NCBI RefSeq assembly: GCF_004010195.1
Contig: NC_057755.1
Coordinates: forward strand, 412,399-476,398
DNA: 64,000 nucleotides
From: Chiloscyllium plagiosum
Lineage: Eukaryota
Direction of reading: 5' to 3'
Shown: piece after piece, positions 17,995-54,692 of the stretch
Position numbering within the stretch: the first letter of the stretch is position 1
Layout of the letters: every line of letters begins with the position of its first letter
Translations under genes and position numbers: made by a program
Notes under the pieces: generated by a model
Database searches by the model: none
What the model was told of the DNA's origin: nothing
What the model saw: only the letters and a program-made list of their open reading frames with translations

Positions 17995-18949
17995 GTTAGT
18001 TGAGAAGTTCATGTAAAATATAATTTGAAAAGGGCCGCTGAATGCACACATACAGAGTTCAGGCAAAGCTGCAGTCACACACAGTCAGTGGTCCCTCCCA
18101 CTTCACTTCCTTTTCCTGTCTCTCTCAAACTCTCTCTTTTCCACAGTCTCTCGCCCTCTGTCTCTTTCACCTCCTCACTATCTGTCAGTCATGCTCCCTC
18201 TCTCACTCACCATCTCTATTTTCTAACTCGCCCTCTCTCTTGTGCGCTGTCTAACTCAATAGCACCTCACCCTCTCTGTTGACTCGCTGTGTCTCTGTCA
18301 TCCCTCCCTCTTCCACTCCCTCCCCCCACCCTGTTGCTCCTTCTCTCTTTCACCACTCTGCAAATGTACCATTACCGTTTTGTACAATTTTAAGAGTTTG
18401 AGTCAGAAGATGCTGGCCTCAAAGGATAATGATGGGGCTGGAGCTCATTCATAAGCTACTTTTCTTCACGAGAAAGTTTCCGCTGCCTGCTCAAATCCAT
18501 TGCCCTCACCTTCAGAAATGGAGAGTTGCTTTTAGCACCTCTGCAGACATGATGCATTTCAAGGCGTCTGATCTGTTCGTGAGCGAGGCTCAAAGATTAG
18601 GAATCAGCACTTTCTTTGTTCCAAAATTTTCACTGTCTCTGATGAGTTTTGAAAGCTCTTCATGAATTATTATAAGTTGGATAAAGAGAATTATTTTTAA
18701 GGAACCTCTGGATTTTGTATTTCAGTATCAAAGTAATCAACCGAAAGCGGTGGAGGGGATGGTCAAGGGAGAGTGGCACAGTTAAGTCACGTTTGACAAA
18801 TATTATCAATTTTGAATAGTATGAACAGGTAGATTGGACATATTTGAAGACTGTGCTGACAATGTGGTTCACACATATATTCAGTTACTCAATATAAAAG
18901 GAATAATAACTGACTGGGTATAAAGTTTGATATATGTTTGTGCTCACAG

Positions 18950-19113
18950 GTCCATTCTCCACAATTACTCAGTTCTTGAAAGTGTGTACGAGCTACCAAC
19001 TATTGTGGATGGTGAAATTCTACTGGAACAGACTTGAAGAAGCGATTGAAGAAGGAGTGGATAGACTCGGCTCATTGTTAACATTTGAGAGGCTTTTCAG
19101 TGGAAAACAACAT
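18950..19113 (+). pseudogene. NLR N-terminal death-fold exon (copy A, open frame)
   Basis: CACAG| then PFSTITQFLKVCTSYQLLWMVKFYWNRLEEAIEEGVDRLGSLLTFERLFSGKQH, typical of chondrichthyan NLR N-termini. Donor unclear. Confidence 0.75.
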
Positions 19114-19389
19114 GCAGAAAGTTGAAGGGACACAGAATGGTTCCAATTATATAACTATCACAAAGCTGGGAGAATAATAACAAAGGAAATGCTGGATGAA
19201 TAAGAAGACCAAAGTTTTCAAACATCCTGATAGTCTCATGCTGTAATAATGTTGGCGTTACTAATCAATCACAGTCATCAGTTCTTTCTGAACAAATCCA
19301 GACCTGAAGTGAGAAACAGTTCTTTCTGAACAAATCCAGACCTGAAGTGAGAAAATCACCAGTGTTTGTGAATGAAATATTCAATTATG

Positions 19390-19940
19390 GGTGGTTACAT
19401 ATTGGCATGGATAGAAGCTTAGCTCGTCAAAGGAATCAGTGCTTGGGTCTTTTACTTTTTGTGACATGTATACATGATGTAGATGCGAATGTTGGGGAAT
19501 GATAAGCAAATATGCAGATGATAAAACGAATGGCCAGTTAGTTAGGACAATGAAGAGGAAAGTGTTAGGTAACATGATGATATAAACAGCTTGATCAAAT
19601 GCGCAGATCAGTGGCAGATTGGAATGTAACCTGATAAATGTGATGCACTTTAGAAGAATTAAGAAGACAAGGGAGTACTCTATGAATGAAGGACACTTGG
19701 AATTTCAGAGGGACTTTCAGATAGTTTGTACACAGAAGAAGGGAGAGCAGGTTTATCGGGTCATTAAGAAGACACATGACACAGTTGTAATTATCATTCA
19801 AGAAATAAATTCTCGGTGCAGGGGAAAGCTGTACAGGTCTTTGGTTGGGCCATCGCTGGAGTACAGTCTGCCATTCTGGTCACCACACTGTAGGAAGGAT
19901 GTTTCCATGTGGAGGGCATTTTAGTGATGAAGAGAAGCTG
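19390..19940 (+). mobile_element. Decayed CR1 fragment (twin at ~28750-29340)
   Basis: KYADDK, LYRSLVGPSLEYSLPFWSPH. Confidence 0.7.
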
Positions 19941-20509
19941 GAGAAACACAGTTTTGTTGTCCTTTTACAGAAAGCTGGAGAAACACAGTTTTGTTGTCCT
20001 TTTACAGAAGAGGGGAATCTGGTTGCGATACTGTAGATTATGAGATAATTATTGTAGAATCCCCAGAGCATGGAAACAGGCCCTTTGGCCCAAAAATCCC
20101 ACAGCGACCTCCTGAACAGTGTCCCACCCAGACCCATTCGCCATTACTCTACATTTAATGAAATAAAGGTGGATAGGAAACTGAATTCCAGAGAGGACAT
20201 AAGGAGCCTACAAAGAGGTATAAGTAGGTTAAGAAAGTCAGTGAAGATCTGGCAAATGTATGATGTGGGAAAGTGCACAATTGTCTAATTTGGCAGGACG
20301 AATAAAGAAGAAGTACACATTCTAAATGGTGAGAGATTGACATTTTAACATGTTGGAAGCATTTCAGAAAAGGTTTACTACAAGATGTTCAACATGGACT
20401 GGTTGACCCCCAAAGGGTGTGTTTACTCTATGAGAATCAGAGAGCTCTACAACATGGAAACAGATATTTTAATCCAACTCATCAATGCCGAACAGGTATC
20501 ATCACAACA

Positions 20510-20790
20510 CCAGGGACCCGCTTTCAAATCTACCTCGGTCATCTGCCTGTGTGGAGTTTGTGCATTCTCCCTGTGGGTTTTCTCCAGCTGCTCCAGTTTT
20601 TAGATATGCAGGATAGGTGGATTCGCCATGCTAAATTTTCCAGGAAGGTGCAGGATAGGTGCAATAGCCATGGAAATTGCAGGGTTATTGGATAGAGTGA
20701 GGGGGGTGGATCTGGGTTGAATGTTCTTCAAGGTTTGGTGTGGATTCGATGGTCTGAACGGCGTACTTTCACACCAGACATTCTATACAT
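20510..20790 (+). mobile_element. Decayed HE1-like SINE (twin at ~30400-30680)
   Basis: TGTGTGGAGTTTGTGCATTCTCCC..GGTGGATTCGCCATGCTAAATT. Confidence 0.7.
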
Positions 20791-21016
20791 CTGTGACTTA
20801 TTAAGTATTGGTGTACCTAATGTCATCAGCTTAGAAGAAATTTTATCCTCATCCCCAACTACAGTCTCACGCTGTATCTAACTTTACTGTCTCCAATACA
20901 TCATAAATATTGTTTGATTCTCCCTCCATAACATTATTCCAGTGTCTCCTATCTCAGTCTGTGAGCTGCGGAAACACCCATTCATGCTTTGGACACACTA
21001 AGCAATAATGACTTCT

Positions 21017-21330
21017 TTTAATCATTCACGGGGTGCGGGCATGGTTGACCAAGCCAGCATTTACTGACCAGAAGGCAGTTAAGAATCAACCACATTGCTG
21101 TGGGTCTGGAGTCACGTTTTGGCCAGACCAGGTAAGGACAGCAGTTTCCTACACTAAAGGACATTAGTGACTCAGATGTTTTTTCCAACATTCAAAAATA
21201 GATTCAAGATCATCATTAGACTTTGAATTCCAGATTTTACTGAGTGGAATTGCACCATCTTCCATGGCGCGATTCGAACCCGGATCCCCCAAGCATTATG
21301 CAGGGCACTGTATAAACAGCTTAATACCAC
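21017..21330 (-). mobile_element. Deu-domain SINE (SacSINE1-like); twin at ~30945-31265
   Basis: AACCACATTGCTGTGGGTCTGGAGTCAC..GGCCAGACCAGGTAAGGAC..GGACATTAGTGA; B-box GGTTCGAATC on the minus strand. Confidence 0.75.
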
Positions 21331-25785: not shown

Positions 25786-28351
25786 TTTGAAGGCTTTGAA
25801 CACAAAAGTGTCAAGGGAAGGCAAGAAATTGTGAATTTCAGGGAATTGGTCCTTGGGAGAGTGACAACTAAACCCAGTTACCCAGTCTGAGACTGCAGAA
25901 TGGAATATGAATTCAGAGCAGTTTTCGTCACAAGACACAAAATCACAATGGAATCTGGTGTGTTTTTTAGTGCAATATGATTTGAACTGAGAGTCTAATC
26001 CAGTCTGAGGCAAAGTATAACCAATGCACCTATGTGGCCATCTTGTTTTCTCTCATGTTTGACAAAACACCAGATTTGCATCACATTTCTAACGATACCT
26101 TCGTCTCTCCTGGCATGCTATCATAGACACTTTATTGTATGAGTGTTGGTTACACAGCTAAGTGGTAAGAGATTATAGTTGAGTGCAATTCATTCAACAG
26201 TGGCCCACAAGTCATCTTGATTGTCCAGATTTGAATTGCTGGATCTGTTCTGAGTGCAAACTACTTTGCACGGTGGTAGTGCACATAGCATGATGAAGCG
26301 TGTCTCCAAAGTGAAGACAAGACTTTATCTCCACAAGGACTATGTGAGAGTCACTTCTGTCTATACTGTCAAGGGCAGAGACATCTACGACAGATGAGGA
26401 TAATGTCAATAGGTTTACTTGGTTCCCTCACCACCTATTTCTGCACAGTCAGGCACACATGTCCTCCTGGATTTGGCTAGCTTAGTAAGCAATGCTGCTA
26501 CCAAAACACTTTTTGGTTGGACATCTTGAAGTTGTCAATTCTGAGCACCTTTGTGCTCAAGCCACCCTTAGTGCTTCTTCCAAGTGGTGTCCATGTTGAA
26601 GTACTCATCAACTGAGAGAGAGCACTGAGATGGTGCTGATGTCATGGGTCTTGGTGCATTCCCAGCTGTTTGCTGCCACCTTCAATGGTAGACAGGGCCG
26701 AAGCAAGGATGGTGATGGTTATATCTGTGACATTTGCTGTAATGTATGATTCACAGTGAGTATGGTCTGACCGGCTGTTACTTAAATTGTTTGTGGCACA
26801 GTTTCCTGACGATGCCAGTTGACAGATTTCAGTAAAGTGGACTTTGCAGAATTGACTGGGCAGATTATATCATTGTCACTTCCAGGGTCCATGTCGATGC
26901 CTGGTGTTCCATCCAATTTTTATTTTTAGTTCCTCTATCATCGTTAGCTGACACGGCTGAGTGGTGTTCTCAGCCGCGTCAGAGCCAGTTAACAATCCCT
27001 TATATTGGCTGGAATTCCGTGCAAAACGTTTTCATCAGGAATGTGTCAATGAATACTCCCAGAGTTGAGTTTGCGCTGATGTGAGTCCATTTGGGTTGTG
27101 GAAATCTGTGGGACTGACAGGATTTCATGAGGTAGCTGTCTGTGTCACAATTGATTGTTACAGTTCAACATATTCTTACAACGATTACCGATAGGGGAAA
27201 GGAGGGAATGCTATTATTTGTAACAAATCAAAGTTTTCACTGCAGTATTTCTGTCTACACATTCTATTGATATTATATCTGATACAAAGCATACGAATCT
27301 GGTAATACTGGTCGTCAGCATTGCTGAATGATTAAACAGGGAAGAAGATCCAATACCTCGCAAAGTGTTAGCATGGACACAGGTTAGTTGAGAAGTTCAT
27401 CAAAATATAATTTGAAAAGGTCCGCTGAATGCACACAGACAGAGCTCAGGCAGAGCTGCAGTCACACACAGTCAGTGGTCCTTCCCACTTCTCTTCCTTT
27501 TCCTCTCTCTCTCAAACTCTCTCTTTTCCACACTCTCTCGCCCTCTGTCTCTTTCACCTCCTCACTATCTGTCAGTCATGCTCCCTCTCTCACTCACCAT
27601 CTCTGTTTTCTAACTCGCCCTCTCTCTTGCGCGCAGTCTAACTCAATAGCACCTCACCCTCTCGGTTGACCCTCCCTCTCTGTTGACTCGCTGTGTCTCT
27701 GTCATCCCTCCCTCTTCCACTCCCTCCCCCCACCCTGTTGCTCCTTCTCTCTTTCACCACTCTGCAAATGTACCATTACCGTTTTGTACAATTTTAAGAG
27801 TTTGAGTCAGAAGATGCTGGCCGTCAAAGGATAATGATGGGGCTGGAGCTCATTCTTAAGCTACTTTTCTTCACGAGAAAGTTTCCGCTGCCTGCTCAAA
27901 TCCATTGCCCTCACCGTCAGAAATGGAGAGTTGCTTTCAGCACCTCTGCAGACATGATGCATTTCAAAGCGTCTGATCTGTTCGTGAGCGAGGCTCCAAG
28001 ATTAGGAATCAGCACTTTCTTTGTTCCAAATTTTTCACTGTCTCTGATGAGTTTTGAAACCTCTTCATGAATTATAAGTTAGATAAAGAGAATTATTTGT
28101 AAGGAACCTCTGGATTTCGTATTTCAGTATCAAAGTAATCAACAGAAAGCGGTGGAGGGGGTGCTCAAGGGACAGCAGCACAGTTACGTCACGTTTGACA
28201 AATATTACCAATTTTGAATAGTATGAACAGGTAGATTGGACAGATTTGAAGACTGTGCTGACAATGTGGTTCACACATATATTCAGTTACTCAATATAAA
28301 AGGAATGATAACTGACTGGGTATAAAGTTTGATTTATGTTTGTGCTCACAG

Positions 28352-28515
28352 GTCCACACTCCACAATCACTCAGTTCTTGAAAGAGTGTACGAGCTACCA
28401 ACTATTCTGGATGGTGAAATTCTACTGAAACAGACTTGAAGAAGCGATTGAAGAAGGAGTGGGTAGACTCGGCTCATTATAAACATTTGAGAGGCTTTTC
28501 AGTGGAAAACAACAT
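28352..28515 (+). pseudogene. NLR death-fold exon (copy B, two stops)
   Basis: PHSTITQFLKECTSYQLFWMVKFY*NRLEEAIEEGVGRLGSL*TFERLFSGKQH. Confidence 0.75.
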
Positions 28516-29404
28516 GCAGAAAGTGGAAGGGACACAGAATGGTTCCAATTATATAACTATCATAAAGCTGGGAGAATAACAACAAAGAAATGCTGGATGA
28601 AGAAGACGATCAAAGTTTTCAAACATCCTGATAGTCTCATGCTGTAATAATGTTGGCGTTACTAATCAATCACAGTCATCAGTTCTTTCTGAACAAATCC
28701 AGACCTGAAGTGAGAAAAACACCAGTGGTTGTGAACCAAATATTCAGTAATGGGTGGTAACATATTGGCATGGATAGAAGCTTAGCTCGTCAAATGAATC
28801 AGTGCTTGGGTCTTTTACTGTTTGTGACATGTATACATGATGTAGATGCGAATGTTGGGGAATGATAAGCAAATATGCAGATGATAAAACGAATGGCCAG
28901 TTAGTTGGAACAATGAAGAGGAAAGTGTTAGGTAACATGATGATATAAACAGCTTGATCAAATGCGCAGATCAGTGGCAGATTGGAATGTAATCTGATAA
29001 ATGTGATGCACTTTAGAATTAAGAAGACAAGGGAGTACTCTATGAATGAAGGACACTTGGAATTTCAGAGGGACCTTCAGATAGTTTGTACACAGAAGAA
29101 GGGAGAGCAGGTTGATCGGGTCATTAAGAAGACACATGAGACAGTTGTAATTATTAGTCAAGGAATAAATTCTCGGTGCAAGGGAAAGATGCACAGGTCT
29201 TTGGTTGGGCCATCGCTGGAGTACAGTCTGCCATTCTGGTCACCACACTGTAGGAAGGATGTGGTCACACTGGATGCGGACTCCGCAAGAATGTTTCTGT
29301 GTGGAGGGCATTTTAGCGATGAAGAGAAACTGGAGAAACACAGTCTTGTTGTCCTATTACAGAAGAGGGGAACCTGGTTGAGATACTGTAGATTATGAGA
29401 TTAT

Positions 29405-29755
29405 TATTGTAGAATCCCTAGAGCGTGGAAAAAGGCCCTTTGGCCCAAAAATCCCACAGCGACCTTCCGAAACGTGTCCCACCCAGACCCATTTGCCATT
29501 ACACTACATTTATCCACTGAATAAAGCACCCAACCTACACATTCCAAAACATTTCTGTGAACTAACGATGGGCAATTCACCTAAACTGCACATCTTTGGA
29601 GTGTGGAAGGAAACCGAAGCAGCCGAAGGAAACCCACGCAGTCACGGGGAGAACTTGTAATCTCACACAGACAGTTGCTCGAGGGCGGAATTGAACGCGG
29701 TTCCCTCGCGCTATGAGGTAGCACTGCTAACCACTGAGCCACATTGCCGCCCCCA
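29405..29755 (-). mobile_element. HE1-type tRNA SINE
   Basis: Minus strand GGCGGCAATGTGGCTCAGTGGTTAGC (A box), CGTTCAATTCC (B box); only its tail survives in copy A (~20050-20155). Confidence 0.85.
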
Positions 29756-31489
29756 TTAGGAGGGGAGTTGAGGAAAAATTCCCTTAGAAGATGGTGGGGC
29801 CTGCAACACATTGCTTGGGAGGGTGGTTGATGTGGGTAACCTTTACAAAGTACTTTAGTGAACAAGTGAAATGTCGTAACTTTCCAGGCTATGGTCCTAA
29901 CGTGGTAAAGTAGGTTTCGGGTAGGTGGTGGTGTGTGTTCTGGTGGTACAGACTCTTTGGGCTGAAAGACCTCTGCTGTAGTTTATGATTCTTTGAACGA
30001 GAAGGAGAGCGTTGGAAGTATCAGAGGAACATTAGCTAAGTATGCTAATGAAATAAAGGTGGGGAGGAAACTGAATTACAAGAGAGGACATAAGGAGCCT
30101 ACAAAGAGGTATAAGTAGGCTAAGAAAGTCGGTGAAGATCTGGTAAATGTATGATGTGGGAAAGCGGACAATTGTCTGTTTTGGCAGGACGAATAAAGAA
30201 GAAGTACACATTCTAAATGGTGAGAGATTGACATTTTAACATGTTGGAAGCATTTCAGAAAAGGTTTACTACAAGATGTTCAGCATGGACTGGTTGACAC
30301 CCAGAGGGTGTGTTTACTCTATGAGAATCAGAGAGCTGTACAACATGGAAACAGACCATTTAGTCCAACTCATCAATGCCGAACAGGTATCATCACAACA
30401 AAAGGGACCCGCTTTCAAATTTACCTCGGGCATCTGCCTGTGTGGAGCTTGTGCATTCTCCCTGTGAGTTTTCTCCAGGTGCTCCAGTTTTTAGATATGC
30501 AGGATAGGTGGATTCGCCATGCTAAATTTTCCAGGGAGGTGCAGGATAGGTGCCATAGCCATGGAAATTGCAGGGTTATTGGATAGAGTGAGGGGGTGGA
30601 TCTGGGTTGAATGTTCTTCAGAGGTTTGGTGTGGATTCGATGGTCTGAACGGCATACTTTCACACCAGACATTCTATACATCTGTGACTTATTAAGTATT
30701 GGTGTACCTAATGTCATCAGCTTAGAAGAAATTTTATCCTCATCCCCAACTACAGTCTCACGCTGTATCTAACTTTACTGTCTCTGTCTTCTTTGTGCTT
30801 GGACTGAGCATTTAATTCTTTCTCCAATACATCAGAAATATTGTTTGATTCTCCCTCCATAACATTATTCCAGTGTCTCCTCTCTCAGTCTGTGAGCTGC
30901 TGAAACACCCATTCATGCTTTGGACACACTAAGCACTAATTACTTCTTTTACTCATTCACGGGGTGCGGGCATGGCTGACCAAGCCAGCATTTACTGACC
31001 AGAAGGCAGTTCAGGATCAACCACATTGCTGTGGATCTGGAGTCACGTTTTGGCCAGACCAGGTAAGGACAGCAGTTTGCTTCGCTAAAGGACATTAGTG
31101 ACTCAGATGTTTTTTCCAACATTCAAAAATAGATTTAAGATCATCATTAGACTTTTAATTCCAGATTTTACTGAGTGGAATTGTACCATCTGCCATGGCG
31201 TGATTCGAACCCGGATCCCCCAAGCATTACGCAGGGAACTGTATAAACAGCTTAATACCACTAGGACTTTGACTTTAAGATAACGTAAGTGCTACCGTGA
31301 CAGGCTTTGCTTTGAGATCGTTAAACTTCAGTTGTCCAAAGCTCTTTTACATCTATCCTATCCCACCTGACTGCCACTCAGTTTAACTTCAGTGCTCCTG
31401 GTGCTCAAATAACTATCATTCAAATATCCTGCCTCCAGTTTAAGTCGGTTCATGGCCTCAATCCAGACTATTTATGTAAACCTTCAGGA

Positions 31490-35680: not shown

Positions 35681-36070
35681 AATCCAAGCAAATGAGAACA
35701 TTCCATTCACACAGCTGAACTGATTTGTAGGTGGTTGGAGATAGGAGGTGAGTTACTTGCGAGAATCTGTAAGATAATGTCTGTTATAAGCTTCTGTATA
35801 AATCTTGCCGAGAATACATCAGCTTTGTAGAAGTCTCCATGACCAAAACCAGAAGAATTTGAAATCTTTCAAAACTATCCTTCTTTTACATGCGATGTTT
35901 TCATGGATGGCAGTTTAACTTCTACACAAATCTGTGTTCAATCTGTGCACATAATGCTGCATTTTGCTTTCAGATTTGCATCACTCAAGTAAGCAAGTAA
36001 TGCATTTTGACGTTTTATTTTTCGTCAATGTTTAACTAACTTGGTGAACTGCTTTCTGTTCTAATTGACG

Positions 36071-37544
36071 ATGTTCAACAGAATCACAAGGAGACATTGC
36101 GGGTCCAAACTGAAAATCTGAGAGTTGACACTGCAGTAATAAAAGAGGTGAAGATTTTCCCACTGGTTGATCGATACACTGAGCTAACGATTATTTCTAC
36201 TGTTCGAGGTCGGACACTTGTAGAAGATGAATCGTTAGCAAGAGGCCGAGACCATGAAGAGTAGAGCGAGAAACTTCTCCAAACAGAACTGGAAAAAATC
36301 CGAGTTGATCAGTTGTTCCATTGCAAAATTTCCAGGGCAATGTCCAAACCAGGGATTTGAGCAGTCATAAATGGAGTGCCCGGGATTGAAAAATCAACAA
36401 TGATACAAAGGATGCTTTATGACTGGGCCACTGGGAAAATATACCCACGCTTTCAATTTGGATTCATTTTTAATTCCGGTATTTGAATGCTCTTAATTGT
36501 TAGATAAACCTGAGAAATCTGATATTGATTCATTACCGTTACTTAGGGAATGTTGTGGGAGAGTTCTGTAAGAACCCAGGGAGATTGCTGTTTATATTTG
36601 GATGGTTTGCATGAATTCAAGGGCAGTATTCATTTTTTTTTGACAGTCAGGGAAATACAGAACCTCAGTCTATCACTGGATCCATTCTTCACACAAAGGG
36701 GCAGGAAACATCAGCAGGTTCTCAAGACCATCACCCAACTGTATTTCTACTGTATTTATAACATTCTGAAAAACTACGGCCGTCAGATTGCAAACCCTGG
36801 TGAGGTGTTTCTGAAACTTGGTGAGATGGCCTTCACTGGTGTCTCTGAGAAAAATATTGTGTTTAGAAATGGAGATTTGATTCAGTACAATCTGGAACTT
36901 TTCCAGTTCCTGTCTGGATTCCTAACTGAGAGAGATTATTCTGAACGGATTGTTAGTTGCACATTCCCACACATCACCATCCAGGAATTTGTAGCGACCG
37001 TTGGTCGATTCCTGACTCCTGATCCCAGGGACATTCAGAAATTGCTCATTGAGGCCCATGGTAAGGAAGATGAACAATTTGCAATATTCATCCAGTTTGT
37101 TGTTGGTCTCTCCTCCCCACAAGCAGCTCGTCCACTGGAAGGGTTTTAATGTCAATTTCTTTATCAGACAATCTGTCAGGTTATTGATTGGTTGAAGGAC
37201 ATTGTTAACAGACAGATTGGAAACACTGAGACTATAATTGGTAAAAAGAAACCTCCTGAATACATTGCACTACCTGTTTGAGTCTCAGAATAAATCACTT
37301 ACACAGAACTCAGTGAAAGATGTGGAAACATTTTCAGTTAGTGACTTTTGACTCACCCCAATAGACTGTGCAGTCCTCTGTTTTGTCATTGAATTCTGTG
37401 AGTCACTAAAAGAACTTGATCTTTTGAAGATCAGATAGTGTCAGCAGCTGTTTTCAATCATGTAGAGGAGAACGACAACTGCTGCATTCAGTACTAAGGA
37501 TTGCAGCGATTGGGACCCATACTTCACAAATGCCGAGAGCTGAA
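36071..37544 (+). pseudogene. NACHT exon of the NLR pseudogene
   Basis: VQQNHKETLR..LVDRYTELTII..GVPGIEKST (damaged Walker A)..LYDWATGKIY..LLFI/DGLHE (damaged Walker B)..TFPHITIQEFVA..TPIDCAVL..HKCREL|GTAACT. Acceptor reads GACG, not AG. Confidence 0.92.
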
Positions 37545-40148
37545 GTAACTATCTGTCTCTAATTTTGTCAAATTGTTGAGCAGTCATGGATTATGCCATT
37601 TTCTCCATAATGAAGGGAGACTAATAGTTCAGTTGGAACAGAGAGAATCATTTTCAGCATAAAATTTGCTGATAATAAAAATTGTTGACAAATTTCACGA
37701 GGACTGAGGAATCTTAAATGGATTCTTGTCAATAGGATGGGATTTTACTGTCTTTTCCTGATGAACTAATACAAGTCATTGAATTTTGGTCAATAAGTCA
37801 TCAAATTCGTAACCAACCTGTTAGACTTGACCGAAAAATCTTTGATCCACACACAAGCATATTCAAACACAGTTGCTGAACCACAAACCCAATTGGATAC
37901 AGACTGAAAGGGACACCCAAAGAGAAACAGAGACACATCCACAAAGAGACACCGAGAGACCCTACTGGAGGCACAGGAAGATCTTGACACATGCGCCAAA
38001 CACAGTCTGAACAACATACTAACCTGCATAAACAAGAGCACAAGGCAGATACACACCCCAGAGTCTGACGATAATACGCTCACACTCAGAGACACATTCA
38101 CACAGATGGAGTCACAGAACCATGATGATATGCTGACAGCAACCACACAAACAGCATAAACGCAGATAGAACATAACAGATGCACATTTGCAAAGCACAA
38201 ACTTATGCACAATCACATAGGTACAGTAACATACACCCACATAAACACATTCAACTTCACGGAAACACTCTCATACAGACCGTATAACATTCCCAAATGC
38301 ATAAATACATGAATATGCAATCACCAAAATACTTGGCAATACACATAAAGGGAAACCTACACGCCGATGCATAAATACCGTCATAATGTGACCCATTGAG
38401 GGAAATATCCAACGACTAAACCGAAAGACACACACACAGTGGTATTGCCACAAAAGCAATGAAGCCCCCCACGCACACAGACACACATACACCCTCACAT
38501 AACGAAAGGGAAACTCATGAACACACCTCCTGCACAGCCACAGGGAAAGGAAAGGAAGATGATCAAGTTTCGGGAGTCGCACTTGTAGTAACATGTCAAG
38601 GTCTTGCTGGCTTTGTCTGTGCAGTTGGTATTTTGCAAAATCACTGCCTGGGGAAAGATCACTGAATAACGGGTTTAGGAAGGAATTTGATTCAAGTGGT
38701 AGTACAACTGACCATGTTCTAAACAGAGACAACATGTTCCTGTCATGGTAAATGTGAGAAAAAGATGCAGTGAGTGTGAGGGAGAGACAGAATGAGCTAC
38801 ACAGAGAAACAAAGAAGGATAGACACAGGGGGAGACTTAGAGACAGGTAGAGATAGAGAATGACAGGCAGGGAGAGACACAGAGTGTGACAGTCAGAGAG
38901 AGAGAGAGAGACTGAGCAAGTAGCTTCGAGATGAGGGAGAGGGCGAGAGGATGAGCAGAACAGAGACAAAGACAGACTGAAAGAAGCTGAGAGAGAGAGT
39001 GCATTCGCCTTGTGATGTGAGAAGACAGGAGGTATACTCAATAAACTCTTTCAAAAACAAATGTGCATTTAACAATAACCAATTCAGATCAGGGAATTAT
39101 CAGCACCAAGGGCATTTCTCTTGTTGTAAGAAAGTGTTTATTGTGAGATGAACAGAGAGGGTCTGAGAATTATCATGGTGCAGGAGGAACAGTTTATGCT
39201 CTTCCCCTCCTCTGCTGAAGGGGAAATGCATAGACCCTCCTGCCGGTCTTTAACACTCACCCACAGAGCAGTCCGTGAAAACCCAATGTTCCAGCTGAAC
39301 CCATTTCTCACATCCGGTTTGCTATTTCGAATCACTAGTCCAGCCATTTTCCAACCTACCAAGCCCCTGACAGTTACCTCTTGCCTCTTTGCCTGCTCTC
39401 CCGTTTTCAAGTCCATCAATATGGTTGAAGGTGAAGATGAATAGCATCCTGTTAAAATTTGAAAAGTCGTGGGTATGGCAATCAGGTGTACAAGGGACTA
39501 TTACAATTGGATGAGCTGTGATTTTATGGGCTGGCAGGAGGACCAGACTTGAAGGGCTGACTGGCCTACTGCTGTTCACTGTCAGACACGGGGACACACA
39601 GACAATCAGGGATATCAGCGTGTTCCTGAGCTTCGTGAACGGTGACCCATTCTGTTACACCCCTCCCCATCCATCATTGGGTGTTATGCTCAAATCCATG
39701 TGATTGTGCTGATGGAATCCGGCCGAACATGTGGAAATTCTGCACTGGGAACTCGACGACTGCCTCTGGAGCTCTCTCAGTTGTTTTTCTGAGCCACTAA
39801 GTGGAACATTTACATCACCAGTTCCTGCACTGCATTCCTGAACTTCGCTCTGAACTTGGGCAGAGATGCTGCCCAGAATAATGTGTAGGTGCTGCACCTG
39901 AAATTCTTCAGCATTACACTGAAGTACGGAAAATGAAAGAATTGTTCTACCAAAGATGTGTTCTTTTGATGCTATAGTATAAGGTGTTCGTACCTTGCAC
40001 TAAACACCGATATATGAAACTAATGGATATGGTGAAGAGGGAAATCACTGACTTCCTCCGGCTTTCCATCTCTGAATCTTTATGAATCTCTCCATCCTTC
40101 TGACGTCTTATGCTCTTGTGGACTTGACTGGCCACTAAAATACACGTG

Positions 40149-40359
40149 GAGAAAGTGAGGTCTGCAGATGCTGGAGATCAGAGATGGAAATGTGTTGCTG
40201 GAAAAGCGCAGCAGGTCAGGCAGCATCGAGGGAGCAGGAGAATCGACGTTTCGGGCATTAGCCCTTCTTCAGGAAGAAGGGCTAATGCCCGAAACGTCGG
40301 TTCTCCTGTTCCCTAAATGCTGCCTGACCTGCTGCGCTTTTCCAGCAACACATTTCCAT
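40149..40359. mobile_element. Palindromic Penelope-derived mini-element with 16-bp TSD
   Basis: 34-bp tail plus hairpin 40183-40360 (2-nt loop at 40271-40272); TSD CACTAAAATA(C/T)ACGTG at 40133-40148 and 40360-40375. Confidence 0.9.
40241..40276 (-). ncRNA. Minimal hammerhead ribozyme motif (weak stem I)
   Basis: UUC-CUGAAGA-A-GGGC(UAAU)GCCC-GAAA-CG-UC/GAUU. Confidence 0.65.
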
Positions 40360-42699
40360 CACTAAAATATACGTGACCGTCAGAGTGTTCATCAACAGAA
40401 TGAACACGATTGGAATGAAAGGGGTTAAAATGATATCAAGCAACTTAACCTCCAGCCACCTGGGATCAGTAAAATAACTTGACTTTGTTTGACGGTGCCA
40501 TTTAACATTCCCAATTACCCTCCCAAAAATAGAATGGAATGCTTTTTGAACAGAGCAGATTGCCAGTTGCGGCCAGCGCCATACCCAAGGATTTGTCTGT
40601 CCATTTTTTTTATTATTTTCAGGCAGCAAATATCCACAAAACGATCAAAGGATAAAAGGGCAGTGAACCTGACGGAACAGTCTTTAGCTGCACGAGCCAG
40701 GACAAAGACAGCACTGTACACACTGGTGAGATCCAGTAAACACCAAGGGCAGTAAACGTATATGAGTTGCCACAGTATGATTTTCGTCAGAATGAACAGG
40801 TGATGCGACGTTGCCATAGACAACAGGCAGCGTGTTGTGCGTTTAAAGAGTCCACACATTCCATGTGTGAGAACAAAAATGACTAGGAAATTAACTGGAG
40901 GAGACAAGAGGTAAAATGCAAATTAGAATCAATAATCAAATGTACTCCACGTCTGCCCCGACAGCAGTGGAAAATCTTAGCGCCGAACTGGGTTAGCTGG
41001 GAGGGTTCAGATATCGGGTTTGAGCAAGACAGCGCTAATGGTCAGATCCATTTCGAGGGTGCTCGGTCCTGGCTGTGACTAAGTGTGGGCAGGCAATCAA
41101 CAGATGGCGGGGGGCATAATTTGTAAGGTGAAAGGGAAGAGGTGTAGAGGGGATCTGAGGAAGTGATTTAGAGGGGATCTGACGAAGAGGTTTTCACCCA
41201 GAGAGTGGTGGGGTTCTGGTAATTCAGTGCCTGGGTGCGTAATGGAAGCAGGAAATATTACAAACTTTAAAAAAAATAACTACTTGAATGAACACTTGAA
41301 GCATCCTGGCATTTACGACTATGAGTATAGTGCTCGAAGCTGGGACGAGTTGTAGATTTCGTGTGGCTTTGACAACACAAACTGGATGGAACTAAGGACC
41401 TCTTCTCTATCGTCGGATTCTATGATTCTAAGAATTACTTTTTGAAGGCAGGTTGGTAAGCGAAGCATTTTAATGAAATAAATCGAAAGGTTTTGAATGC
41501 TGAAACATGACACAGAATCATTAATAGCTGGCAAAACCCAACAGGTATGGCAGCATCTGTGAAGAGAGAAACAGAGTTGATGGAATCGCTTTTCATCAGT
41601 GCAACTTCATCTGAACATGGATCAATAAACTCAAAACATCATCTTAGGTTTCTCCTCGCACAAGGTCCTATCATTGCAACCAAAAGACAGTCATTCATTT
41701 CTAATAGGGAATTGAGATTTACAGTAATGATATTCATCTACCATGAAACATTTGTTAGCCTGCTCTTCGCATACTGGGCATTGTTAGAGTCATATAGATA
41801 TATAGCATGGAAACAGTCCCTTTAGATCAAATTGTCCAGACGGACCATATATCCTCAATTAATCTCAGCTCATATGCCCCCATTTCCCTCTCAACCCTTT
41901 TCATTCAGTTAGCCATTCAGCTAAATTTTAAATATTGTAATTGCACCAGCCTCCATCACTCCCTCTGACAGTTCATTCCATATACACACCACACTCTGCA
42001 TGAAATACTTTACCCTTACGTCCCTTTTAAAATTTTCCCTCTCATCCTAAATCTATCCCCTCTCATCATGGACAATCTCACCCCAGGGAAAAGACCTTGT
42101 TTATTTACACTGTGCATGCCTCTCATGATTTTATAAACCTCCATAACGTCACCCATCGGCCTCTGACGCTTCAGGGAAAACTGCCCCAGCCTATTCAGCC
42201 TGACCTTACAGCCCCAACCCTCCATTTCTGGGACCATTCTTGTAATTGTTGAACCCTTTCAAGTTTCACAACATCTTCTCTTTTCGAGGGTGAACAGAAA
42301 CACACATTATTCCAAAACGGGCCGACCTAATGTCCTGTACAGCCACATAACCTCCCAATTCCGACATGCAATGCTCTGACCAATAAAGGAGAGCACACCA
42401 AACGTCATCTTTACTATCTTATCTACCTGAAGCACTATTTTCAAGGAACTATGAACTTAACTCCAAGGTCTGTGTGTTCAGCAACACTCCCCAGGACCTT
42501 ACCATTAAGTGTATGCTTTCAGCCCTTTCAAAATTATACTCGATCTGCCACTCTTCGGCCCATTGGCCCACCTGCAGATCCCACTGCATTCTGAGGTAAC
42601 GCTCTTCACTGTCCACTGCAATGCCAATTTTGGTGTCATCTGCAAACTGACTATACCTCCTATATTCACATTCAAGCAATTTACATAAATGATGAAAGA

Positions 42700-43410: not shown

Positions 43411-44166
43411 CAAGGAAAGCAGTAGACCTAGCACGGATCCATGTGGCACACCACTGGTTACAGGCCTCCAGGCTGAAAAGCAATCCTTCACCACCAAACA
43501 CTCTCTTCTACCTTTGAGCTACTTTTGCATCCAAATGGCTAGTTCTCCCTGTACTCAATGTGATCTAACCTTGCAAACCAGTCTACCATGAATAATCTTG
43601 TCAAACAGCTTACTGTCGTCCATATAGATGGCGGCCACTATTCCGCCCTCATCAATACTCTTTGTTAATTCTTCAAGTAACTTAATCAAGTTGGTGAGAC
43701 ATGCTATCCCACACACAAAGCCATGTTGACTATCCTGAATCAGTCCCTGCCTTTCCAAATACATCATGTAAAGGCTATCCCTCAGGAAACAACTTGCCCA
43801 CTACTGATGTCATGCTCACCTGACCATAGTTCTCTAACCTTTTCTTGCCCTCTTTCTTAAGCAGTGGCATTACATTAGCCAACCTTAAGTCTTTCGGCAC
43901 CTCACCTGTGTCTATTTATGATATAGATATCTCAGCAAGGAGCCCAGCAATTACTTCCCTAGCTTACCACAGAGTTCGAGTGTACACTTGACCAGGTCCG
44001 GGAGACTTATCCACGTTTATGTACGTTAAGATATCCAGCATCTCCTCTTCTTTAATATGGACATTTGATCAAGATGCCACCATGTATTTCCCCACGCTCT
44101 TTATCTTTTATGAAGTTAAAAATCACACAACACCAGGTTATAGTCCAACAGGTTTAATTGGAAGCA

Positions 44167-44201
44167 CACTAGCTTTCGAAGCGACGCTCCTTCATCAGGT
44201 G
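44167..44201 (-). ncRNA. Minimal hammerhead ribozyme motif (left pLTR)
   Basis: CAC-CUGAUGA-A-GGAGC(GUC)GCUUC-GAAA-GC-UA/GUG. Confidence 0.8.
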
Positions 44202-44680
44202 ATTGTAGAGGGCTCGATCGTAACACAGAATTTATAGAAAAAATTTGCAGTTTGATGTAACTGAAATTATACATTGAAGAATTGATTGTCTGTTAAGCCT
44301 TTCATCTGTTAGAATGCAGTGATAGTTTCACTTCTTTCATGTGTAAATCACAAAACCCTTTTTTTATAAGTTGCATTCTCGGGTTAGCTGTTAACAATGG
44401 TGATAGCTAGACAATGTGTTGAAGATGTTAGCCCCCTGTGTTCTCTGTCTATGACCTGATGTTTAGATTGATTCCAATCTAAAAAGTGAAATAACGGAGT
44501 TTTACATAAATTCATGCAGTTTTTGAGCTCAGAGTTCGACATGAATCTATGTGGTTTTTGAGCAAAGTGCAATGTAACCTTGCACCAAAAAAATTCACCA
44601 CACACAATATATGTGTGTGCACGTGGGTCTTTTTCTGTCTGTGTGTGTGTCTGTCTGGGGTGAGGGTTGTGAGTGTGAGA

Positions 44681-44721
<41 letters not shown>

Positions 44722-44911
44722 GTGTGTGTGCGTGTGTAGTGAGTGCAGAGTGTCTTAAGTCTGTGAGGGGCTGTATGTGTGGGAGTCTGTGTGTCGAAAA
44801 GGGTGTGTGTGGGTGTCTGTGTGCGCGTCTGTGTGTATCTGCGTCCGTGTGCATGTGAGAGTGTGAGTGTGTGTAGGAATATCTGTTTGTGTGTGTGTAG
44901 TGCAATGGTGA

Positions 44912-45476
44912 TCACCTGTAATGTGACATGAACCCAAGGTCCCGGTTGAGGCCCTCCCTATGGGTACCGAACTTAGCTATCAGCCTCTGCTCAGCCACTT
45001 TCCTCTGCTGCCTGTCCCGAAGTCCACCTTGGAGGATGGTCACCCGAAGGTCCGAGGCTGAATGTCCTGGACCACTGAANNNNNNNNNNNNNNNNNNNNN
45101 NNNNNNNNNNNNNNNNNNNNNNNNNNNNNNNNNNNNNNNNNNNNNNNNNNNNNNNNNNNTCCACCGTGACAGGGTTGTATGGAGTTGTCCTGAGAGCCGG
45201 GCAGTTTACTACGAACAATGATCTGTTTGAGGTTGGCGGTTGTTTAAAGGCAAGTAGTGGAGGTGTGGGGAAGGTCTTGGTGAGGTGCTCATCTCCATTG
45301 ATAATGTGTTGCAGGTCACGAAGAACATGGCGTAATATTTACATATGAAAGAGGTGAACCTATCACTGTATTCTAGCAGATGAAACCCTTCACTGAACAA
45401 CGAAGGGTACCCTGTCAATTGCAGCCCGTGTCTGTCTCCTGAGGAGGTCATTACCGTTCCTTGCTGTGGCACGTCT
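44912..45476 (-). pseudogene. Penelope ORF C-terminal fragment (linker + GIY-YIG endonuclease end)
   Basis: RRATARNGNDLLRRQTRAAIDRVPFVVQ..LRHVLRDLQHIINGDEHLTKTFPTPPLLAFKQPP..KQIIVRSKLP..PCHGG[gap]FSGPGHSASDLRVTILQGGLRDRQQRKVAEQRLIAKFGTHREGLNRDLGFMSHYR*. Confidence 0.85.
45080..45159. other. Assembly gap (80 N)
   Basis: Run of N. Confidence 1.
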
Positions 45477-45647
45477 CCATTGCACTACACACACACACAC
45501 AGATATTCCTACACACACACACACACACTGAAATGCACACGGACGCAGATACACACAGACGTGCACACAGACACCCACACACACCCTTATAGACAGACAG
45601 ACTCCCATACATACAGCCCCTCACAGACCTAAGGCAGTCTGCACTCA

Positions 45648-45691
<44 letters not shown>

Positions 45692-46171
45692 TCCCACACT
45701 CACAACCCCCACCCCAGACAGACACACACACAGACAGACAAAGACCCACATGCACACATATATGCTGTGTGCGGTGAATTTTTTTGGTACAAAGTTACAT
45801 TGCACTTTGCTCAAAAACCACATAGATTCATGTCGAACTCTGAGCTCAAAAACTGCATGAATTTATGTAAAACTCTATTATTTCACTTTTTAGTTTGGAA
45901 TCAATCTAAACATTAGGTCATAGACAGAGGACACAGGGGGCTAACATCTTCAACACATTGTCTAGCTATCACCATTGTTAACAGCTAACCCGAGAATGCA
46001 ACTTATAAAAAAAAGGGTTTTGTGATTTACATATGAAAGAAGTGAAACTATCACTGTATTCTAACAGATGAAAGGCTTAACAGACAATCAATTCTTCAAT
46101 GTATAATTTCAGTTACATCACACTGCAAATTTCTTCTATAAATTCTGTGTTACGATCGAGCCCTCCACAAT

Positions 46172-46206
46172 CACCTGATGAAGGAGCGTCGCTCCGAAAG
46201 CTAGTG
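46172..46206 (+). ncRNA. Minimal hammerhead ribozyme motif (right pLTR)
   Basis: CAC-CUGAUGA-A-GGAGC(GUC)GCUCC-GAAA-GC-UA/GUG; perfect stem II. Confidence 0.82.
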
Positions 46207-46627
46207 TGCTTCCAATTAAACCTGTTGGACTATAACCTGGTGTTGTGTGATTTTTAACTTTGTACACCCCAGTCCAACACCGGATCTCCTTTATCTTTTA
46301 TGTCATTCTTCACGTAAACAATGATGCACAATGCTCATTTAGTACCCTTGTAGCTCAGTTGCAATCCATCCATCTCGTACAGGTCACTTCCACCCCAGAA
46401 GAGATTCAAACGATCCAAAAATGTGAACTGCTCTATCCTGTACCAGCTCCCCAGCTATGCATACATCTGCAATATCCTCCAATTCCTCCACTCACTAGCT
46501 CGGAGCACCTGGAATAATCCAAATACTGTATTACTACACTTGATGACCTCCTTTTAAATTCTGCTTAACCTTCGGTGTTCTCCGCTCAGAATCTGATCCT
46601 TTTCACTTCCAAAGTCATTATTTCCAA

Positions 46628-46744
46628 CCAAAAGAGAAATGCTGCAACATCTAATCAGGTCTGGCTGCCAGACCTGCTGAGATTTTCCAGCATTTTCTCT
46701 TTTGGTTACACATTTCAGCATCCGCAGTAATTTGCTTTTATTTT
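46628..46744. mobile_element. Short hairpin Penelope-derived mini-element with 15-bp TSD
   Basis: Imperfect palindrome 46626-46707 plus tail; TSD AGTCATTATTTCCAA at 46613-46627 and 46745-46759. Confidence 0.8.
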
Positions 46745-54572: not shown

Positions 54573-54692
54573 TTCGGAGATTCCGGTGTTGGACTGGGGT
54601 GTACAAAGTTAAAAATCACGTAACAACAGGTTATAGTCCAAAAGGTTTAATTAGAAGCACACTAGCTTTCGGAGCAATGCTCCTTCACCTGA
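54573..54692 (-). mobile_element. Penelope pLTR end fragment with a broken hammerhead
   Basis: Reverse match to 46180-46288; core reads CAGGUGA instead of CUGAUGA. Confidence 0.85.

Follow-up and report, generated by a model that had tools for sequence, protein, structure and literature searches.

Polyadenylation beside the hammerhead motif of a shark Penelope-like element family, and the probable two-ended origin of one of its inverted insertions

Within the 64,000-nucleotide stretch of Chiloscyllium plagiosum DNA analysed here (the window), positions 44113-46288 very probably hold a dead-on-arrival, 5′-truncated insertion of an abundant shark family of EN+ Penelope-like elements (PLEs), likely of the Neptune type, that was formed by two-ended priming. 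The layout of the insertion, its target site duplication (TSD) and its truncation are seen at the locus, as is the shared source of its two halves; its ends recur in the family, whose transcripts are polyadenylated just past the hammerhead motif. What we have not found described elsewhere is the position of this polyadenylation: RNAs of the family gain poly(A) about 30 bases past the predicted cut site of the ribozyme. The insertion itself is real but ordinary, hammerheads in inverted pLTRs and an AGCU stem III having already been published.

Results

Two inverted arms flank the remnants of a single ORF

The features of the locus, in the coordinates of the window, are these:

44099-44112, plus strand: left TSD copy, 14 bp, an exact match to 46289-46302
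44113-44911, minus strand: 3′ pLTR/3′ UTR of the long ORF-bearing copy, with the 'no-tail' family end (arm alignment; loose ends at the equivalent 46261)
44138-44158, minus strand: mirror poly(A) hexamer (44158-44153) and poly(A) site, identical to the right arm and predicted at the locus
44167-44201, minus strand: minimal type I hammerhead motif of the left arm, with a private stem II G-U pair at 44179; predicted cut after 44170
44912-45079, minus strand: 3′-terminal piece of the RT-EN ORF, 55 codons and the stop, for the C-terminal end of the GIY-YIG domain; it matches P0005 residues 268-322 at 98% identity
45080-45159, no strand: 80-N assembly gap; the corresponding stretch in relatives is 81 residues long (243 nt) and includes the CxxC and GIY-YIG motifs
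45160-45336, minus strand: RT-EN linker piece that holds the first Cys of a Zn-finger-like linker and is frameshifted near 45235
45337-45396, plus strand: filler in right-arm orientation, about 50 nt from pLTR 46025-46074 plus a 7-bp fold-back
45397-45476, minus strand: most upstream ORF remnant, 28 codons, reaching the 5′ truncation point and head-to-head junction
45477-46260, plus strand: inverted 5′-truncated second copy, pLTR only, beginning a few nt past the stop-codon equivalent (arm alignment)
46172-46206, plus strand: minimal type I hammerhead motif of the right arm; predicted cut after 46203
46215-46220, plus strand: polyadenylation hexamer AUUAAA, which a common family variant at 46216 turns into AAUAAA
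46232-46235, plus strand: poly(A) addition site of family transcripts (poly(A) loose ends of run X21)
46239-46256, plus strand: GU/U-rich stretch that follows the poly(A) site, its role inferred from textbook 3′-end signals
46261-46288, plus strand: 'tail' of 28 nt, on one arm only; the family end lies about 7-11 nt further (loose ends behind 46280-46283; third copy)
46289-46302, plus strand: right TSD copy, an exact match to the left copy

Pairwise alignment of the inverted arms (44113-44911 on the minus strand against 45474-46260 on the plus strand) gave identity in 749 of 802 columns, the others being 35 mismatches and 18 gaps, in line with the arms of about 790 bp described in an earlier, sequence-only reading of this DNA. 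The 14-bp TSD of that reading likewise held up, matching at 14/14 positions, and the 14-mer occurs only these two times in the whole window when both strands are counted; no empty site was seen. The organization is that of an EN+ PLE: pLTRs lie in inverted orientation around a 5′-truncated body, the TSD belongs to a class of variable length (14 bp here), and one end carries a tail, for which 30-40 bp is usual and which in this copy is the 28 nt by which the right arm exceeds the left; the ends of the family, by the consensus of loose ends, are 46261 and about 46295-46299. Thirteen differences fall within 485 nt of non-repetitive arm, runs of perfect identity between the arms reach 82 nt, and the head-to-head junction near 45476 is without a palindrome. 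Identity as a non-LTR retrozyme, a class made up of non-coding tandem repeats whose every unit holds a hammerhead, was considered and rejected, as the locus has two inverted copies with ORF remnants and no tandem units.

The remnants of the ORF lie on the minus strand at 45476-45397, 45336-45160 and 45079-44912, and map by tblastn to residues ~94-186 and 268-322 of the protein P0005. Among 37 candidate proteins, 21 matched the last 55 aa; the best-matching named proteins, at 95-98% identity, belong to Chiloscyllium punctatum, which upholds the earlier assignment to a Penelope-like element of shark origin, and more distant relatives come from four other shark species. The RT domain is truncated away here; Pfam RVT_1 (E 5e-9) is found in the relative P0009, whose C-terminus is 78% identical. 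None of the four ORF remnants matched Pfam and the visible 55 aa alone match no family, but they are the C-terminus of proteins with GIY-YIG (in P0006, Pfam GIY-YIG, E 2e-5). Of the GIY-YIG C-terminal core named in the sequence-only reading, the match of the last 55 aa to the C-terminus of relatives thus stands, whereas the GIY-YIG motifs themselves fall inside the N gap.

A CX4CxxC linker is found in 6 of 10 aligned relatives (P0005, P0009, P0011, P0012, P0016 and P0007), and only its first Cys precedes the gap in the copy here. In the pertinent passages of Craig et al. 2021 (PMC8557442), a CX2-5CxxC linker between RT and EN is the mark of the Neptune/Nematis clades, the linker and EN motifs of the shark copy being mostly hidden by the gap. 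With the RT and GIY-YIG motifs out of sight in the window, we assign the clade from the relatives, as probably Neptune-type. Note that the gap could conceal more than 243 nt. The 60-nt filler stands in for 7 codons and introduces stop codons, and it has the right-arm letters at both sites where the arms differ. Judged by its reading frame, the copy at 44113-46288 is unable to encode a working protein.

Elsewhere in the window there are at least two more hammerhead motifs, of other families, at 145 and 40272. The 25 of 67 long frames that were scanned yielded a single LINE endonuclease remnant and a single NLR exon, the latter broken by stops and frameshifts; among these 25, no intact host gene was seen around the locus, and a downstream LRR exon was not recognised.

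The ends of the insertion recur among family copies

Four of 24 runs, whose species may differ from that of the window, were aligned to 45780-46500 at 85% likeness. Three contig sets, from three coded organisms, yielded 66,952, 56,788 and 90,809 matching records. DNA depth climbs steeply towards the 3′ end of the pLTR region, as expected for 5′-truncated retroposed copies. Loose ends behind 46261 (566 in run X1) continue into heterogeneous AT-rich letters and mark the no-tail end; those behind 46280-46283, present in all four runs, continue for about 10 more shared letters and then into A-rich sequence, and mark the tail end. The insertion at 44113-46288 has one end of each kind. A third copy, at 54577-54687, matches out to the same tail end, and no TSD of at least 7 bp was found in the flanks searched.

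Of 16 compared positions at which the right arm has the minority letter of the family, 10 have that letter in the left arm too and 6 have the majority letter there. The 10 shared letters suggest that the arms come from one source or subfamily and have drifted since, although gene conversion between the arms could also have produced them.

Family transcripts are polyadenylated just past the hammerhead motif

Both AAUAAA and AUUAAA are canonical poly(A) hexamers, and one or the other stands shortly after the motif in the family. We followed polyadenylation in X21, a single-cell poly(A) RNA run of one sample, assigned by species label, of which about 2% was read with duplicates included. Family transcripts are common in it (3841 matching of 12,955,460 records). 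Sense-strand loose ends consisting of long A runs were found in 438 reads behind 46232 and 524 behind 46235, or 962 together, as counted from the top entries, with 1618 further ones outside them. These 962 reads amount to about half of the depth at the site; main-mate-class depth drops from 1560 before it to 680 after it, DNA depth peaks at the same point, and the genomic sequence there is not an A-tract. The drop in RNA depth, the DNA peak and the absence of a genomic A-tract make internal priming unlikely. Reads over the motif show both loop II types, which argues that more than one locus contributes.

The poly(A) site is 12-15 nt 3′ of AUUAAA and 5′ of the GU-rich stretch; the predicted cut lies about 30 nt upstream of it and the two DNA ends 25-65 nt downstream. 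Because the site precedes both DNA ends, the polyadenylated RNAs cannot template insertions; the templates of insertion must read through a pLTR. Poly(A) reads span the predicted cut site uncut, and X21 has no pile-up of read ends there. Note that a poly(A) library would rarely capture a 3′ product as short as about 30 nt; the missing pile-up is therefore no evidence on cleavage.

The hammerhead motif has the standard anatomy and drifts with the arms

A hammerhead motif is present in each arm at exactly the positions given in the sequence-only reading (44167-44201 on the minus strand, 46172-46206 on the plus strand), and its description there as a minimal type I hammerhead with an AGCU palindrome and a predicted cut after CUA matches the consensus anatomy. 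A 3-bp stem I is followed by a CUGAUGA core, an extra A, a 5-bp stem II capped by a 3-nt loop, GAAA and the AGCU palindrome, with cleavage predicted after CUA; both arms thus have the features of PLE min-HHR, namely the CUGANGA / GAAA / UH core, the extra nucleotide after A9, G10.1-C11.1 and a palindromic stem III. An AUG in the hammerhead core meets a stop after 8 codons.

The single difference between the two motifs, C at 46194 against 44179 (U on the minus strand), changes a stem II G-C to G-U, just as had been reported. That the pair is kept, as also noted there, is uninformative. At the arm-wide rate 0.94 differences are expected per 35 nt and 1 is observed, so that there is no sign of selection, 5 of the 10 possible stem II transitions keep the pair, and the change destabilises the fold by 2.9 kcal/mol. 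On these three grounds we reject it as covariation. A hammerhead search and stem covariation across copies had been named as checks. The search gave no support, in that none of the 8 Rfam matches at E up to 10 was to a hammerhead family, and the motif call therefore rests on anatomy. Across copies, the in-motif variants among 40 rows (a further 96 lie outside these and may include core or stem variants) were in loop II, at 46188 and 46189, together with a 2-nt loss at 46204 that leaves the 3′ stem I strand intact.

The predicted hammerhead fold has -8.1 / -5.2 kcal/mol, compared with -65.5 / -69.5 kcal/mol for the arm duplex over the motif, and the predicted fold of the 56-nt left motif differs from a hammerhead. 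Monomer folds did not exceed shuffled sequences in stability (z from -1.24 to 0.14), and the modelled dimer (-16.3) was no more stable than two monomers (-18.2). In a 150-nt context the predicted probability of stem I is near 0, and that of stem II is low too. The result for the modelled dimer and the low predicted stem probabilities speak against a workable ribozyme; they fit the weak, protein-assisted activity that has been reported, and are no proof of it. We take the motif to be a standard dimer-type minimal hammerhead, presumably kept in active master copies, and the motif at this locus to be a probable passenger that would be unable to dimerise in cis.

In a pattern scan of metagenome contigs that put no constraint on the inside of stem II or on the 5′ strand of stem I, we obtained 67 loci in 36 clusters, taken with one representative each. 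At least 4 stem II pairs were formed in 8 of 36 clusters against 1.8 expected (P 4e-4), and at least 3 stem I pairs in 6 of the 8 stem II-paired clusters against 2 of the 28 others (Fisher P 4e-4); across unrelated AGCU-type motifs, the stems are kept with different pairs, beyond chance. These look-alikes are not members of the shark family, and tblastn found no PLE ORF within ±400 nt of them. A scan of viral contigs gave 1 match, which was without stem pairing, was treated as chance and was excluded from the counts.

Formation of the insertion

We infer that the insertion arose by two-ended priming as follows. The element protein would nick both target strands 14 nt apart, and each 3′-OH would prime reverse transcription on RNA of one source element, one cDNA beginning at the no-tail site and the other at the tail site. 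Both cDNAs would stop early (~1.4 kb visible and 0.81 kb) and be joined head to head, and one template jump, in which the long cDNA moved briefly onto the short one, would give the 60-nt filler, which may instead stem from later templated repair. Each half would inherit the hammerhead carried by every pLTR of the family. That both 3′ ends face outward against the TSD fits nicks 14 nt apart that each prime one cDNA, and the presence of an ORF without a tail on one arm and of a tail without an ORF on the other argues that neither arm is a plain copy of the other. Moreover, the abundant polyadenylated RNA stops short of the ends of inserted DNA, a finding that agrees independently with RT starting internally on read-through RNA.

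Fold-back self-priming of a single cDNA or RNA, the route suggested for Penelope elements of rotifers, might also have produced the inverted arm. The shared minority letters are compatible with one template, palindromic junctions are interpreted as fold-back in the relevant part of Arkhipova et al. 2013 (PMC3846280), and a small fold-back hammerhead element of another family is located at 40191-40363. The junction near 45476, however, has no palindrome, and with the ORF arm tail-less and the tailed arm ORF-less, fold-back copying would need a second start or a template switch; we consider this route unlikely. The gap that separates the two halves, with 80 N against about 243 nt expected, leaves some room for an assembly join across it or for a pair of independent insertions, the later one in or next to the earlier. 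Such an origin is highly improbable given that one exact TSD flanks the entire unit, that the ORF pieces on either side of the gap are collinear with P0005, and that 10 minority letters are common to both arms.

A different role for the locus had been put forward in the sequence-only reading, namely that it may yield RNAs that cleave themselves on both strands together with a long dsRNA hairpin; extended to a regulatory hairpin for which the hammerheads are conserved, this could draw on the retention of all core letters in both motifs, on the very stable duplex that the arms, with perfect runs of up to 82 nt, could form, and on the abundance of family transcripts in X21. The two halves of the proposal are, however, opposed to one another: each read-through strand has one sense motif, made after its complement, and since the duplex is far stronger, the hairpin would bury the hammerhead. 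Moreover, the motifs differ at the arm-wide rate, and the left-arm change weakens stem II in a motif whose 56-nt form folds otherwise. RNA reads are mostly without the letters of the locus (498/534 differ at 46135), no read-through of the locus was seen in the ~2% of X21, whose species may be another (RNA depth 0 in 5/8 flank bins), and read ends do not pile up at the cut site. The nearest gene remnant found, the disrupted NLR exon, is about 7 kb off. Such a function thus seems quite unlikely, and the preferred reading remains a two-ended, dead-on-arrival insertion.

Discussion

The inverted pair of hammerheads is not surprising; it has precedents. In the parts of Cervera & De la Peña 2014 (PMC4209133) that concern us, min-HHR pairs occur on opposite strands 100-700 bp apart, one of them around a bracovirus PLE, and a GAAA-GCU core is found in 5 of 56 aligned motifs (two of S. 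mansoni, and those of Adineta, Philodina and painted turtle). The same source describes an S. mansoni motif that in vitro showed no monomer cleavage and low dimer/trimer cleavage; judged by name, the S. mansoni (1) row among the GAAA-GCU cores appears to be the family so tested. The shark motif shares with this set the CUGANGA core, the unpaired nucleotide before G10.1-C11.1, the short stem I, the palindromic 15.2-16.2 and the pLTR position. It differs in its host, no cartilaginous fish being among the 56 rows, and in its 3′ flank, which these passages term only 'AU-rich', with no poly(A) site, whereas the shark family is polyadenylated there. HHR retrozymes were found in one chondrichthyan according to a 2026 preprint; no description of a shark PLE hammerhead was found in the passages at hand, where 'shark' refers only to the namesake of the ribozyme.

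The layout of the insertion also has counterparts. Published PLE complex insertions comprise an inverted 5′-truncated copy and, at one of the ends, a tail of 30-40 bp (Craig et al. 2021, PMC8557442, in the section on such insertions), and the rotifer insertions detailed in Arkhipova et al. 2013 (PMC3846280) have TSDs of 8-10 bp, arms of 181-218 bp and palindromic junctions. As far as the excerpts of these two papers and of Schostak et al. 2008 (PMC2377424) go, the head-to-head inverted 5′-truncated copy, the one-arm tail and the variable TSD are shared with the shark insertion. Unlike the rotifer examples, the shark insertion has arms of ~790 bp and a TSD of 14 bp, lacks a junction palindrome and contains an internal pLTR filler.

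The relevant passages of Frangieh et al. 2024 (PMC11167929) concern PAc, a Poseidon element of Anolis carolinensis, for which both strands were cut and extended, RT started at two internal sites that define the tail downstream of the hammerhead, and the hammerhead required protein. The shark family resembles PAc in having a hammerhead in the pLTR and no RNA-seq reads that end at the cut site. PAc is of a different clade, however, and in these passages its ORF starts inside the hammerhead, whereas the AUG in the shark core soon meets a stop. A looser analogy, and no more than that, is the Clec2 mammalian 3′-UTR hammerhead in the corresponding part of Weinberg et al. 2019 (PMC6765202): there too the cut is between stop codon and poly(A) signal and cleavage would remove the tail, but in Clec2 the hammerhead is split and belongs to a host gene, whereas the shark motif is a minimal dimer-type one in a retroelement repeat.

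No description of a poly(A) site next to a PLE hammerhead was found in the literature on Penelope and pLTR polyadenylation, of which most subscription papers and Repbase reports were beyond reach. AAUAAA or AUUAAA is within ~15 nt of the cut in 11 of the 56 published min-HHR rows, as far as letters are printed after the cut and by a by-eye, null-free count. Among the metagenome clusters, 3 of the 6 structured ones have members with a hexamer within 60 nt, compared with 2 of the 30 others; the two groups differ in base composition. The other-family hammerheads at 145 and 40272 have no hexamer within about 75 nt after the cut, so the coupling is not universal. We offer as a tentative idea, one that we hold to be less probable than its negation, that the 3′ end of the pLTR unites ribozyme and poly(A) site in one module, by which transcripts are sorted according to their fate, and that this coupling may be general in PLEs and have been overlooked. 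If so, polyadenylation ahead of the RT start would make an mRNA incapable of templating insertion, only RNA that reads through a pLTR, such as the upstream pLTR of a tandem, would retain the RT start sites, and cleavage of a dimer would remove the poly(A) signal or tail.

The locus itself is of little weight. Its value is that of a clean specimen of how inverted PLE insertions may arise, in which a single source and a single TSD go together with two RT start sites, one to each arm. The poly(A) site adjoining the ribozyme is a lead worth following, and at the level of the family it places a testable constraint on the role of the PLE hammerhead and on which RNA is reverse transcribed.

Features of the family and a third copy

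Each pLTR arm of the insertion carries an internal 35-nt tandem duplication (44497-44563 and 45809-45876), the repeats of which are 78-79% alike. Because the duplication lies inside both arms, it is a feature of the source element. Past window position 46288, the consensus of the tail's loose ends stops near an ATG, which may be the family's true ORF start. The window also holds another copy of the family:

54577-54687, minus strand: third family copy, very short

This copy has the tail and retains the poly(A) hexamer; its 5' break falls within the hammerhead core, and its loop II is unlike that of the arms. A TSD was sought in the sequence flanking this copy, and none of at least 7 bp was found.

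Other hammerheads in the window and in metagenomes

Another family is represented at 40191-40363 by a short palindromic (fold-back) element, 93.6% self-complementary, that has an ACGU-type minimal hammerhead at its centre (C3 at 40272), with a full core on the minus strand only. A related ACGU-type motif lies at 65-147 on the minus strand (C3 at 145), and the stem II pairs differ between the two motifs. Outside the shark genome, the marine metagenome contigs L020 and L035 (397-432) contain a hammerhead 94% identical to that of the insertion over 36 nt, with a 5-bp stem I and an AATAAA 18 nt past the predicted cut; the rest of their sequence is unrelated.

Surroundings of the insertion and host proteins

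To the right of the insertion, another high-copy repeat at 46355-46429 shows large DNA depth and some RNA reads, and a hairpin of about 80 nt occurs at a distance of 330 nt (46628-46708). Matches of the hairpin to miRNA models are weak, at chance level, and it looks like the end of another fold-back repeat. To the left of the insertion, a broken NACHT/NLR exon (~36050-37600, plus strand; Pfam NOD2_WH and NLRC4_HD2) has many stops and frameshifts and is followed by a single LRR-like exon. Almost identical translated stretches at ~18900-21200 and ~28300-31200, spaced about 9-10 kb, suggest a local segmental duplication.

The C-terminus of the family's endonuclease is also held by annotated bamboo-shark host proteins (P0003, P0019, P0020 and P0022: a PPP1R12A-like isoform and GPCRs), which reflects either exonisation or gene-model error.
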